Source of the DNA: Promethearchaeota archaeon
GTDB lineage: Archaea; Asgardarchaeota; Lokiarchaeia; Sigyniarchaeales; SOKP01
DNA: 64,000 nucleotides
NCBI GenBank assembly: GCA_016839705.1
Contig: JAEOTR010000084.1
Location: 22,132-86,131 of the forward strand
Direction: 5' to 3'
Position numbers and translations under genes: made by a program. Under the pieces are notes generated by a model. The model searched no databases. It saw only the letters and a program-made list of their open reading frames with translations, and was not told the origin of the DNA. This document shows, piece after piece, positions 11,720 through 15,823 of this stretch (the stretch's first letter is position 1; each line of letters starts with the position of its first letter).

Positions 11720-13612
11720 CTAATCATCTGAATCTTCTTGGTCAAAAAAAACTTCATAAAAAAGTTCTTTTTCACCACTTTCTGGAGGTGTTATTTTTGT
11801 ACGCCCCCCCCGCTGTATAATACGAACAGTGCTTTTGTTCTGAAGATGAATTGTTCCGTAGAATCCCTTTATTCCTTTTTCTTTTGCGATGATAATTAAA
11901 TGTTGGTAAAGAAATGTACCGATTCCTTCTCCTCTCCATTTTTCAGATACAATAAAACTGTATTCCGCCATGTTTAAAGAAGGGTTAAAATAATATGTTG
12001 CGTTTCCTATCATATTCTCTCTCCCAATTTCCCCTGTAAAAGCACCAATAGAGAAAACTTTATCATAATCAATATTTACTTCATCTTGAGTCTTAGAATG
12101 GGTAAACTCCTTCCTTACTTCAAAAAATCGTAAATATCTATCTGTTTCGTTCAAGGCGTAATATAAATCTTTAAGTAAGGGTTCATCTGTAGTTTTAACA
12201 GGTCTTACTCTAATTTTTTCATTATTCCTGGCAGTGTAAATCGTTTCATATCCAGAAGGATATAAACATATTCGTCCATCTTCGTCACATGGAAGTAATT
12301 GATCCGAATAAACATATTTTAATTTTTTTGCTTTGTCCAATAATGATTGTCGAAAGTCTGGATGAGCAACACATATCAATTCAAGCACCCTTTCTCTTAT
12401 CGTTTTCCCATGAAGATAAGCTACACCCCATTCAGTTACAACATAATACACATCTCCACGAGAAAGCATTATTCCTGCACCCTCATCTAAATGTGGAACT
12501 ATTCGTGACTTTTTGCCATCTCTAGATGTTGAAGGCATAATTATGATAGGTTTCCCCCGTTTAGAAAAGGCTGCTCCCCTCATAAAATCAATCGTTTCTC
12601 CTAACCCTGAATAAAATTTATAGCCTTCTGTTGCTGCATTTACTTGTCCAGTAAGGTCTATTTGTCGAGCAGAATTAATTGAGACCATACTTTTGTTCAT
12701 TCCAATATTCCTAGGGTTACACACATAATCAGAAGGGAAAAATTCAATATAGGGATTATTATGAACGAATTCGTATAATTTTCTAGTACCTAGAGCATAA
12801 CTCGTAATTATTTTTTCTGGATGAAAATTTTTTTTTCTACAAGTAAGAATGCCCTCTTCGATAAGAGGTATGATATTATCTGTAATATAGTGAGAGTGCA
12901 TTCCAAGGTCTTTTTTATCCTTTAAATATTTTAGTGCTGCATTTGGCAAATCACCAAAACCAATATGAATCGTCGATTTATTTTCAATAATATTCGCAAG
13001 ATTTTTACCAATTCTTTCAGCTATATCATCAGGTTCCTCAAAGAAAAACTCTAATAAAGGTTGATTGTTATAAACAAAAAAATCAATTTCTTTCATATGC
13101 ATAAAACTGTTTCCTAAAGTACGAGGCATTTGAGGATTGATCTCAGCTATAGTTAGATAAGATGATTGTGCCAAGGTTTTTGCGATATCGACATTAATAC
13201 CTAAAGAACAAAAACCGTATGGATCTGGGGGGGAGACTTGTATAAGAGCAACATCTATATGTTTTCGACCAGTTAAAAATAGTGAAGGTATTTCACTCGC
13301 ATAAATCGGGGTGTAGTCTGCTTGACCATTATTGATTTCTTCACGAAGATTTGATCCTATAAAAAATACATTATGTCTAAAAAGATCCTCCGCTTTATTT
13401 TTAAAATATTTCTCAGGGCCAATTGTTAGAAAGTGAAGAATCTCCGTGTCGATTAACTTCTCTGAATGTTTAATCAATTCGGTTGTTAATAATTGAGGTT
13501 CAGAACATCCAGAATCAATAAAAACTCTATTCCCCGGTATTATTTTCTTTATGGCATCTTCTGCATTGATTTGTTTATCCTTCCATTTTTCTCTCCATTT
13601 CTCATCTATCAA
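11720..13612 (-). CDS. Acetyl-CoA hydrolase/4-hydroxybutyrate CoA-transferase-like domain fused to GNAT acetyltransferase
   Basis: DVALIQVSPPD, VVTEWG, AHPDFR; C-terminal YLRFF and WRGEGIGT acetyl-CoA-binding loop. Confidence 0.9.
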   Translation of the reverse strand: MIDEKWREKWKDKQINAEDAIKKIIPGNRVFIDSGCSEPQLLTTELIKHSEKLIDTEILHFLTIGPEKYFKNKAEDLFRHNVFFIGSNLREEINNGQADYTPIYASEIPSLFLTGRKHIDVALIQVSPPDPYGFCSLGINVDIAKTLAQSSYLTIAEINPQMPRTLGNSFMHMKEIDFFVYNNQPLLEFFFEEPDDIAERIGKNLANIIENKSTIHIGFGDLPNAALKYLKDKKDLGMHSHYITDNIIPLIEEGILTCRKKNFHPEKIITSYALGTRKLYEFVHNNPYIEFFPSDYVCNPRNIGMNKSMVSINSARQIDLTGQVNAATEGYKFYSGLGETIDFMRGAAFSKRGKPIIIMPSTSRDGKKSRIVPHLDEGAGIMLSRGDVYYVVTEWGVAYLHGKTIRERVLELICVAHPDFRQSLLDKAKKLKYVYSDQLLPCDEDGRICLYPSGYETIYTARNNEKIRVRPVKTTDEPLLKDLYYALNETDRYLRFFEVRKEFTHSKTQDEVNIDYDKVFSIGAFTGEIGRENMIGNATYYFNPSLNMAEYSFIVSEKWRGEGIGTFLYQHLIIIAKEKGIKGFYGTIHLQNKSTVRIIQRGGRTKITPPESGEKELFYEVFFDQEDSDD

Positions 13613-13843
13613 ATTAGGGTTTACCTTTATTGTTGTTTAATCTAAAATCATTGATTTTTTAATTTATAAAAATTTACTTCAATCTCGTTATTAAATGTAT
13701 TTTCCTCAATATAATGTTTTTGAAATTATAAATAAAATGTTTAAATTCAATTCATATCTTATTTGATTTAGAAGTATACTTGTAAGATGAAAATATTAAA
13801 AAAATTTAAAGTTATAATTCAAGATTCAAAAGTGTAAAAGACT

Positions 13844-15823
13844 ATGTCTAAAGAAGAAAGAATGGAAAGCATTCTTACTGAAAATCGTATTTTTAATCCT
13901 GTTGACCTTAATCCTGAATACGTTAAAACCGGAATGTCAATGGAAGAATATAAAAAGCTATATAAGCAATCGATTGAAGATATGGAAGGATTTTGGGGTG
14001 AACAAGCAAAATCTCTTGATTGGTTTAAACCCTATGATAAAGTATGGGAAAAAACGGACTTGTTTCCAGGAAAGTGGTTTGTTGGTGGAAAACTTAATGT
14101 TGCTTATAACTGTTTAGATAGGCATGTGAAAGCAGGAAAAGGAAAGAGGACTGCTCTAATTTGGGAAGCTGATGAGCCAGGACAAGTTAGAACATATTCT
14201 TACGATGAGTTATTAAAAGAGGTTTCAAAGGTTGCGAATGGGATGAAAAAACTTGGGTTAGAAAAAGGAGATAGAGTTACTATTTGGTTACCCATGATTC
14301 CTGAGCTTGCAATAATTATGTTGGCATGCGCTAGAATCGGTGTCATACATTCTATTGTATTTGGTGGATTTTCTAAAGAAGCAGTGAAAGATAGAATAAA
14401 AGATTCAGATTCTCGACTTCTCTTTACGAGCGATGAAACTGTAAGGGCTGGAAAGTATTATCCTAAATTAGCTGATGTTGTTAATATCATTGATGATGTT
14501 CCAACTATAGAACACATTATAGTTGTAAAGCGATCCGGAAGAGATATACCCCACACAAATAAGGATATCTGGTATCATGACTTTATCGAAGGGATGAGTG
14601 AAGAAAATGAACCTGAAGAAATGGATTCTGAAGATACCTTGTTTATCTTATATACAAGCGGAACTACTGGTAAACCAAAGGGAGTAAAACATACCACCGC
14701 AGGATATATCCTATATACATCATTCACCCATAGAATAGTTTTTAATTATCATGAAGGTGATATTTGGTATTGCACTGCGGATATCGGGTGGATCACTGGA
14801 CATTCTTATATTGTTTATGGACCTCTAGCAAATGGTGCTACAAGTCTAATGTTCGAAGGAGTTCCAACTTACCCTGAAGTCGATCGGTTTTGGGATATCG
14901 TTGAATCCAATAAAGTCACTCATTTCTATACAGCTCCTACTGCAATTAGAGCGTTAATGAGATATGGGGATGATCCTGTGAAGAAACACGATGTGAGCTC
15001 ACTGAAAATCTTAGGAACTGTTGGAGAACCTATAAATCCCGAAGCATGGACGTGGTATCATAGAGTGGTTGGACAAAATAGATGTCCCATTGTTGATACA
15101 TACTGGCAAACTGAAACAGGGGGATTTATCATGACACCTATAGCAACCGCAACACCAACCAAACCAGGATCTTGCTGTATGCCTTTCTTGGGTATAAAAC
15201 CAATAATCTTTGACCTTGAAGGAGAAGAAGTCACTGAACCTGATGAGGGGGGATATTTTGCGATGGCCCAACCATGGCCAGGGATATTGAGAGACGTTTG
15301 GGGCAATACTGAGCGATTTAAATCAACCTATCTCGCAAAATATCCGGGATATTATTATACAGGTGATGGAGCACGACGAGATCAGGATGGTTATTATTGG
15401 ATTTTAGGCAGACTTGATGATGTTATTAAAGTATCAGGGCATAGAATAGGAACCATGGAAGTAGAATCTGCTCTTGTAAGTCATCCAAGCGTTGCGGAAG
15501 CCGCAGTTGCTCCATTTCCGCATAAAATAAAAGGTCAGGCAATCTGGGCCTACGTAACTCTAATGCAAGGAGTTGAGAAATCAGCGAAACTATCTAAAGA
15601 GATACGTATGCATGTAAGAAATGAAATTGGACCTGTATTCCAACCTGATGTAATTCAATTTGCTGATGCTTTACCTAAAACGAGAAGCGGTAAGATAATG
15701 CGTAGAATCTTAAAAGCTATCGCAGCAGGTACAGATATTGGAAATGTTACAACATTGGCAGATCCATCTGTAGTAGATACTCTATTAGAAGAACGTAAGA
15801 AAATAGACGTTGAAATAGGTTAA
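13844..15823 (+). CDS. acs: Acetyl-CoA synthetase (AMP-forming)
   Basis: YTSGTTGKPKG, WITGHSY, WQTETGG, LPKTRSGKIMRR. Confidence 0.96.
   Translation: MSKEERMESILTENRIFNPVDLNPEYVKTGMSMEEYKKLYKQSIEDMEGFWGEQAKSLDWFKPYDKVWEKTDLFPGKWFVGGKLNVAYNCLDRHVKAGKGKRTALIWEADEPGQVRTYSYDELLKEVSKVANGMKKLGLEKGDRVTIWLPMIPELAIIMLACARIGVIHSIVFGGFSKEAVKDRIKDSDSRLLFTSDETVRAGKYYPKLADVVNIIDDVPTIEHIIVVKRSGRDIPHTNKDIWYHDFIEGMSEENEPEEMDSEDTLFILYTSGTTGKPKGVKHTTAGYILYTSFTHRIVFNYHEGDIWYCTADIGWITGHSYIVYGPLANGATSLMFEGVPTYPEVDRFWDIVESNKVTHFYTAPTAIRALMRYGDDPVKKHDVSSLKILGTVGEPINPEAWTWYHRVVGQNRCPIVDTYWQTETGGFIMTPIATATPTKPGSCCMPFLGIKPIIFDLEGEEVTEPDEGGYFAMAQPWPGILRDVWGNTERFKSTYLAKYPGYYYTGDGARRDQDGYYWILGRLDDVIKVSGHRIGTMEVESALVSHPSVAEAAVAPFPHKIKGQAIWAYVTLMQGVEKSAKLSKEIRMHVRNEIGPVFQPDVIQFADALPKTRSGKIMRRILKAIAAGTDIGNVTTLADPSVVDTLLEERKKIDVEIG

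Follow-up and report, generated by a model that had tools for sequence, protein, structure and literature searches.

A putative pseudo-CoA-transferase fused to a Pat-type GNAT and encoded head to head with acs: a candidate acetyl-CoA synthetase acetyltransferase in an Asgard archaeon

Control of acetyl-CoA synthetase (Acs) by lysine acetylation is a textbook circuit in bacteria and eukaryotes. The catalytic Lys of Acs is the documented substrate of Pat (PMC3195501) and is established in bacteria as a target of both Pat and AcuA (PMC3195501, PMC11910552). The large domain of Salmonella Pat lacks the catalytic His, and full-length Pat has a second acetyl-CoA site that is absent in a GNAT-only construct, shows positive cooperativity, and tetramerises (PMC3195501). 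The accessory domains distinguished in the bacterial lysine acetyltransferase (KAT) classification are NDP-forming acyl-CoA-synthetase-like (types I/II), cAMP-, NADP- or amino-acid-binding (type III), or none, and a CoA-transferase accessory domain is unlisted in that one published scheme (PMC11254643). Here we describe a locus in a 64,000-nucleotide stretch (the window) of contig JAEOTR010000084.1 from a Promethearchaeota archaeon, an uncultured member of the Lokiarchaeia, in which a gene for a CoA-transferase-like domain fused to a Pat-type GNAT (protein P0001) lies head to head with acs (protein P0002), 231 bp apart by open reading frame (ORF) coordinates. By analogy with the bacterial enzymes, we propose that P0001 is a Pat-like acetyltransferase acting on Acs, in which the pseudo-transferase domain has a CoA ester bound as effector or scaffold, a reading to which we assign a probability of roughly 0.6.

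The N-terminal part of P0001 was compared with the family I CoA-transferases. Pfam searches placed AcetylCoA_hydro at residues 10-184, AcetylCoA_hyd_C at residues 275-428, and GNAT at residues 509-598, and the matches to PF02550 (94.5 bits) and PF13336 (195.9 bits) correspond to the two-domain alpha/beta CoA-transferase fold. In HMMER searches, P0001 matched the solved 4-hydroxybutyrate-CoA (4HB-CoA) transferases 9vag, 3eh7, and 3d3u with E-values of 1e-98 to 1e-115 (best 7.7e-115). In the alignments with these three structures, LGMHSHY stands opposite LG(V/I)HTEM and SGLGETIDF opposite SG(F/T/S)GGQ(L/V)D(F/Y). The column of the family I catalytic Glu is therefore occupied by His241, and the GXGG(A/Q) oxyanion loop reads G-L-G-E-T, with Glu or Asp in place of the second Gly in all 121 members of the query's clade. 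Against the model TIGR03948, the protein scored 239.7 bits, far under the 674.8 cut-off. The AF2 model of P0001 (pLDDT 91.6, pTM 0.87) superposed by Foldseek on 2OAS over residues 1-430 with a TMt of 0.95 and a root-mean-square deviation of 1.5 Å. The model suggests a fixed arrangement of the two domains of P0001, and the Foldseek search made with it found no solved chain that spans both a CoA-transferase and a GNAT domain.

The extent of the active-site changes was assessed by a conservation test, in which 78 active-looking relatives (38 stand-alone proteins and 40 Glu-keeping fusions) were compared with the 121 members of the query's clade, and positions at least 80% conserved across the active set were taken as family-conserved. 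Of 75 such positions, 69 are kept in the clade and six are replaced (V154T, D211N, G212K, Q216H, E241H, and G339E/D), indicating that the fold was kept while the catalytic centre was rebuilt. At position 241 the clade has H in 116 members, Y in 4, and L in 1, and its sister lineage P0124 has F; at position 339, 61 members carry E and 60 carry D, and the residue is also acidic in P0124, where GDS replaces GGQ. Position 340 is Thr instead of Gln in the clade. The tolerance of position 241, together with the free exchange of Glu and Asp at position 339, argues against a relocated covalent nucleophile. His241 itself was considered as a new catalytic residue and is disfavoured, because Y, L, and F are also found in its place. 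A preliminary description of this DNA, made from its letters alone, had reported the His in the Glu column, G-E-T in the G-G-Q loop, the RGxGIG loop of the GNAT, and the PKTRSGK Lys of acs, and all four were found where it had placed them. Its call of a lost catalytic Glu was borne out by the alignment to 9vag, 3eh7, and 3d3u and is not due to chance, since H, Y, or L fills the column in 121 of 121 sequences; its view of the domain as devoid of the family catalytic set likewise stands, given E241H, G339E/D, and the 6 of 75 conserved positions that are replaced. In RipA, a conserved Glu of the subfamily, Glu249, is the essential nucleophile (PMC3180442). The transferase domain of P0001 is thus most likely a pseudoenzyme, predicted to be no longer able to form the glutamyl-CoA intermediate.

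The Glu-less domain is nevertheless well preserved. The same genome encodes a second fusion, P0123 (contig C73), which is 52% identical to P0001, retains intact LGIHSEV and SGIGGQVDF motifs, and is not located near acs. In the seven genomes that carry both forms, the CoA-transferase domains share on average 79.7% pairwise identity among the Glu-less proteins versus 80.0% among the intact-Glu paralogues, and the corresponding values for the GNAT domain are 73% and 71%. The Glu-less ORF is unbroken in more than 100 genomes. In the fusion tree, the Glu-less clade together with P0124 forms one of four lineages within a well-supported Lokiarchaeial clade and has no accelerated branch. The equal identity in both paralogues, the intact ORFs, and the lack of a fast branch show that the Glu-less domain is not decaying and that the whole fold is constrained; it is under strong selection.

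Such selection would also be expected if the transferase domain were still enzymatic, with the carboxylate at position 339, perhaps together with His241, replacing the Glu or activating water, so that P0001 would be a bifunctional transferase or hydrolase and acetyltransferase. The invariant acidic residue at 339, found throughout the clade and in P0124, could still support some chemistry and counts against a pure pseudoenzyme. In this family, as in the AarC and SCOT structures, the loop that holds this residue shapes the oxyanion hole beside the nucleophile. The residue is therefore a candidate for the compensating Glu that the preliminary description had named as evidence against its reading. 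In addition, selection on the domain is as strong as in the intact paralogue, and relatives with the full catalytic set are also linked to acs (see below). However, a covalent nucleophile or catalytic dyad would not usually tolerate a roughly 1:1 ratio of E and D at 339 combined with H, Y, L, or F at 241. The glycine of the oxyanion hole is itself replaced, as are D211, G212, and Q216 near the gating loop, and many other fusion lineages have deleted or scrambled the loop yet keep the GNAT. We therefore regard retained transferase chemistry as improbable.

The GNAT moiety of P0001 is of the Pat type. The last 226 residues of the protein matched Pat/PatZ (9it0 residues 700-861, E-value 2e-12, the best match in the PDB), SlPatA (4nxy), mycobacterial Pat, and Sulfolobus Pat. 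The alignment to 9it0 and 4nxy is continuous through the Pat-specific N-terminal extension (YP...RP..P.DE...Y.RFF), and this full-length agreement upholds the earlier assignment of the domain to Pat-type GNATs. Within the core, RGEGIG stands opposite the acetyl-CoA loop (Q/RxxGxG/A) and Glu550 opposite Pat residue 809. Glu809 has a catalytic role in Pat. Among ten diverse fusions, the columns of Glu550 and of the RGxGIG loop are invariant or nearly so, that of Glu550 being invariant. The NCBIfam model of mycobacterial Pat gave 41.6 bits for P0001 compared to a cut-off of 460. None of the accessory domains listed in the KAT classification precedes the GNAT, since Pfam detected only the N and C domains of AcetylCoA_hydro upstream of it.

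The product of the divergent gene, P0002, scored 972.6 bits with NF001208 and 941.5 bits with TIGR02188, above the respective equivalog cut-offs of 657 and 724.95, and keeps Lys617 of the A10 motif. In a search of its own genome assembly, no other full-length true Acs was found. Near the start of contig C19 (G000:C19:431-604) there is a fragment of 58 residues with 86% identity to the Acs C-terminus; it may reflect contamination (estimated at 6.8% for this genome), strain heterogeneity, or a second copy of acs. Candidate erasers are also present, namely one Sir2 gene and at least three complete histone deacetylase (HDAC) genes.

The linkage between the Glu-less fusion gene (H-type) and acs was examined in 50 loci fetched from family f1, to which the query belongs. 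In 44 of these, acs resides on the same contig, head to head in 43 and convergent in one (L035). The start-to-start gaps of the head-to-head pairs are approximately 0.2-1.3 kb in 41 cases, and insertions extend them to 2.9 kb in L031 and 5.8 kb in L051. Among the six loci with no acs on the contig, L013 has acs elsewhere and five contigs end at or near the fusion gene. Related fusions adjoin acetate-activation genes in other Asgard families as well. In 17 of 18 loci of family f31, for which 16 genera were sampled, the fusion diverges from an operon in which a gene for an MFS transporter or a GPR1/FUN34/YaaH/SatP-type acetate channel precedes acs. The fusion and acs converge in all three f28 loci, and another f28 paralogue adjoins an ADP-forming acetyl-CoA synthetase (ACD), whereas in f16 an ACD gene follows on the same strand 70-130 bp downstream of the fusion in 12 of 14 evaluable loci. 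The synteny in relatives that the preliminary description had asked about was therefore found, both in the 44 of 50 H-type loci and, with acs or ACD, in the other families.

The acs- and ACD-linked fusions of f31, f28, and f16 keep the Glu, the GGQ loop, and the GNAT motifs and form clades separate from the query's. Because they adjoin acs or ACD while retaining the Glu, the tie to acs is independent of Glu loss, and the tie of the fusion to acetate activation is old or recurrent. The suggestion that Glu loss tracks acs synteny accordingly failed as a general rule: a coupling of the two is true inside Promethearchaeales and breaks in f31, f28, and f16. Within the query's order, the acs-linked lineage is the one that, judging by its motifs, has turned pseudoenzyme.

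These data also bear on the possibility that the locus has no functional meaning, in which case chance would have fixed the order of the gene pair in a single family and the dead domain would be a remnant in decay. The Glu-less clade does occur in a single GTDB family, and its neighbouring genes are syntenic as well, the downstream PHP-PAP2-GTPase-TFIIB block being mostly conserved in f1. Against this, the domain is as conserved as that of the active paralogue, more than 100 genomes carry an unbroken ORF, the linkage recurs in unrelated lineages, and the acs-fusion pair outlasts the flanking block in three loci (L035, L041, and L043), where the downstream block was not found. This explanation was already disfavoured and appears very improbable.

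A more serious alternative is that the GNAT modifies something other than Acs, either other proteins (acyl-CoA ligases, histones, or metabolic enzymes) or a small molecule, and that the adjacency reflects a co-regulated acetate/acyl-CoA module. Several observations favour this explanation and at the same time weigh against our proposal. The genome encodes nine other AMP-forming ligase homologues that are alternative possible targets. Paralogues of the fusion in the same genome and in f3 are not linked to acs, and approximately 75 intact-Glu fusion loci (the f1 paralogue, f3, and Desulfobulbia) have no acs within 6 kb, so that the fusion family is not restricted to Acs. Conversely, genus g2 and families f3 and f4, including Promethearchaeum MK-D1, have acs but no H-type gene, so that the regulator is dispensable. 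Much of the synteny in f1 may also be plain inheritance, since the TFIIB-GTPase-PAP2-PHP block is conserved there too. Furthermore, in vitro acetylation of histone tails by small Asgard GNATs has been reported (bioRxiv 10.64898/2026.07.02.735847). On the other side, the fusion adjoins acs or ACD in four lineages and in divergent, convergent, and co-directional arrangements, acetate transporters are part of the f31 operon, and the GNAT is closest to the Pat enzymes, whose documented substrate is Acs (PMC3195501). Based on these results, we consider a target other than Acs unlikely, though less so than either of the two preceding alternatives.

In the proposed role of P0001 as an Acs acetyltransferase, the C-terminal GNAT would bind acetyl-CoA and acetylate the product of the divergent acs gene at its catalytic Lys617. 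This modification would turn off the ATP-consuming adenylation step of Acs, and the sirtuin or an HDAC-type deacetylase of the genome would reverse it. The N-terminal 430 residues would have descended from an active CoA-transferase with loss of the Glu nucleophile and the oxyanion-hole glycine; they most likely bind a CoA ester, free CoA, or acetate without turnover, and this occupancy, or dimerisation, would be coupled to GNAT activity, a role comparable to that of the catalytically inactive acyl-CoA-synthetase-like domain of Salmonella Pat. The analysis establishes the domain identities, the residue replacements, the fold, the selection on it, the gene linkage, and that erasers are present. 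That Lys617 is the substrate and that the dead domain is an allosteric acyl-CoA/CoA sensor, as the preliminary description suggested, are both proposed by analogy with Salmonella Pat, and the direction in which regulation runs is likewise a proposal.

The coordinates of the locus are summarised in Table 1. The window has a G+C content of ~30%, and a TFIIB and a Gtr1/RagA-like GTPase are encoded near the fusion gene according to Pfam. The flanks of the 59-nt intergenic block vary within the genus, and other genera keep the TATA-like part only; the block is a probable acs promoter or operator, as judged from the intergenic alignment. In L005, L008, L046, and L047, a small Cys-rich ORF (~80-130 aa, with a zinc-ribbon-like CxxC...CxxC pattern) is situated between the H-type gene and acs.

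Table 1. Positions of the fusion gene, acs, and their functional elements within the window
Feature	Position	Strand	Basis or remark
Fusion gene (H-type), 630 aa, P0001: CoA-transferase-like domain, ~35-aa linker, Pat-type GNAT	11720..13612	(-)	ORF, Pfam, NCBIfam, AF2 model
CoA-transferase-like domain, residues 1-430: complete 4-hydroxybutyrate-CoA-transferase fold, apparently without the catalytic set	12323..13612	(-)	PDB sequence matches, Foldseek
His241 codon in the catalytic-Glu column (LGMHSHY)	12890..12892	(-)	Alignments
SGLGETIDF loop in place of SGxGGQxDF	12584..12610	(-)	Glu339 codon 12596-12598 at the second-Gly position; position 340 is T
N211, K212, H216 instead of family-conserved D, G, Q, just before the G-x-G loop	12965..12982	(-)	Conserved-position comparison
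Pat-type GNAT, residues 466-610	11783..12217	(-)	Alignment to 9it0 residues 700-861 and 4nxy residues 18-189
Glu550 codon, aligned with Pat Glu809	11963-11965	(-)	Alignment to 9it0
RGEGIG loop, residues 560-565	11918-11935	(-)	Alignment; codon check
AT-rich divergent intergenic region, 231 bp	13613..13843	unstranded	Between fusion gene and acs
59-nt block, near-invariant within the genus: TATA-like TTATAAATA box and two AATGTTT repeats	13688..13746	unstranded	30 orthologous intergenic regions aligned
Second TATA-like box, fusion-gene side	13655-13675		Intergenic-region alignment
acs, AMP-forming acetyl-CoA synthetase, 659 aa, P0002	13844..15823	(+)	NF001208, TIGR02188
acs Lys617 codon in PKTRSGK, proposed acetylation site	15692..15694	(+)	Codon check

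The acs orthologues of related genera contain short inserts of 30 nt (one of 32 nt and one of 60 nt), located after codon 422 in L047 (G241), after codons 396 and 421 in L033 (G174), and after codons 312, 344, 398, and 421 in L034 (G170). Several of them occupy the same codon inside YWQTETGG, each forms a hairpin flanked by bulges, and in-frame stops occur within the matches. By these features the inserts look like bulge-helix-bulge (BHB) mini-introns. The acs gene of the window has no such inserts. Apparent in-frame TAA stops in six acs orthologues were also considered, and the five that were inspected proved to be natural stop codons ending the match. The f28 acs genes (L070 and L193-L195) are ~80% identical to the window acs, and the acs of f3, a family of the same order as the window genome, is 55-60% identical, which suggests two acs types or transfer between Asgard lineages.

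Proteins at least 68% identical to P0001 were found in family f1 only. A fusion match of some kind is present in 126 of 134 f1 genomes, some of which, for instance those of genus g2, have the intact-Glu form only. In families f2, f3, and f4, only forms ~50% identical were detected, and those inspected, from two f3 genomes and one f2 locus, retain the Glu. The loci of Promethearchaeum syntrophicum MK-D1, Ca. Harpocratesius repetitus, and Lokiarchaeum ossiferum carry intact-Glu fusions, f3 belonging to the same order as f1. The Glu-less clade is thus restricted to one uncultured family of Promethearchaeales; no close relative of its sister P0124 was found among 400 genomes of the phylum.

Fusions of this architecture account for roughly 70 of the best 150 clusters at 50% identity. 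Of 73 fusion representatives, 40 retain the Glu and 34 the GG pair; the GNAT acid is present in 70 and the GNAT loop Gly in 68. Of 61 stand-alone relatives, 43 have E in the Glu column and 57 an unaltered GG pair. In a FastTree phylogeny that combines fusion and stand-alone representatives, the Glu/non-Glu state changes at least 19 times. These motif counts indicate that in the fusion family the GNAT is probably the constant catalytic part and the transferase-like domain an accessory that is often no longer an enzyme. In 12 of the 61 unfused homologues (for example, P0222, P0225, P0235, and P0244), a Gly occupies the catalytic-Glu column (LG.HSG) and the GGQ-type loop is intact.

Other variants of the architecture were also identified. 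P0160 (1013 aa) and P0174 (955 aa) combine CoA-transferase-like, GNAT, and Hist_deacetyl domains; both are devoid of the catalytic Glu (D and G in the column), and the GG loop is absent from one of them. Together with the gene linkage, these deacetylase fusions lend support to the proposed acetylation of the catalytic Lys of Acs. P0128 and P0131 (~960 aa) carry a 4Fe-4S dicluster domain at the N-terminus. HDAC adjacency was dropped as a general trait, because L069 was the sole locus with an HDAC gene upstream of the fusion. Intact-Glu fusions also occur in Desulfobulbia (L097-L116 and L127, from Desulfocapsa, Desulfurivibrio, Desulfobulbaceae, and Thermodesulfobacteriota metagenome-assembled genomes). 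Over the C-terminal part (~226 aa), they share 54-60% identity with the Promethearchaeum form, and they nest in the Lokiarchaeial clade beside the MK-D1 group, with a host-like G+C content of 44-61%. This placement points to an old archaeon-to-bacterium transfer.

A wider interpretation, which we put forward tentatively, is that CoA-transferase::Pat-GNAT fusions form an unrecognised and widespread lysine-acetyltransferase class in Asgard archaea and Desulfobulbia that governs Acs and ACD. The ancestral working transferase would report acyl-CoA/acetate flux to the GNAT, the acs-linked f1 copy would be a pure pseudoenzyme sensor, and the HDAC fusion a one-protein acetylation switch. A natural series from active enzyme through pseudoenzyme sensor to writer-eraser fusion could reveal the route by which metabolic enzymes become allosteric sensors. 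Our literature search found neither a study identifying an Acs writer in archaea, Asgard archaea in particular, nor one of the CoA-transferase/GNAT architecture, for which the database names are only 'GNAT family N-acetyltransferase' or 'acyl-CoA hydrolase/GNAT'. The locus described here is a concrete, testable candidate for an Acs writer in Asgard archaea with a regulatory module of a new kind. Acetate is a main fermentation product and syntrophic currency of Lokiarchaeia, and a switch on acetate activation would bear on their balance of ATP and acetyl-CoA.

Among known systems, P0001 is similar to Pat/PatZ (YfiQ) of Salmonella enterica and E. coli (9IT0, 9ISQ), which acts with the CobB sirtuin, in having a C-terminal Pat-type GNAT and a large N-terminal domain that stems from an acyl-CoA-handling enzyme and has lost its catalytic residue. 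The N-terminal domain of Pat/PatZ has the fold of NDP-forming acyl-CoA synthetases (~625 aa), whereas that of P0001 has the family I CoA-transferase fold (430 aa); Pat/PatZ comprises 886 residues compared to 630 in P0001, which is archaeal and is encoded by a gene paired with acs. The type III KATs, namely Mycobacterium Pat with its cAMP domain and GNAT (4ORF) and the actinobacterial ACT-GNAT proteins (PMC6434083), share with P0001 an N-terminal effector domain, a C-terminal Pat-type GNAT, and a similar size. Acs is among their substrates, and their effector domains are small dedicated sensor folds, in contrast to the presumed ex-enzyme of P0001. In Bacillus subtilis, acuA is reportedly transcribed divergently from acsA, an arrangement like that of the present gene pair. 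The AcuA protein, however, is a single-domain GNAT complexed with AcsA that lacks a CoA-transferase-like domain and whose sequence is not of the Pat type (PMC11910552, PMC11255334). Finally, the 4HB-CoA and butyryl-CoA:acetate CoA-transferases (AbfT 3GK7, 2OAS, and RipA 3QLI) have the same two-domain fold in Foldseek comparisons (TMt 0.90-0.95, 31-39% identity), but P0001 differs from them in the change of Glu to His, of GXGG(Q) to G-x-G-E/D-T, and in the fused GNAT, and by these motifs we regard it as a homologue rather than a functional member of the 4HB-CoA-transferase subfamily.

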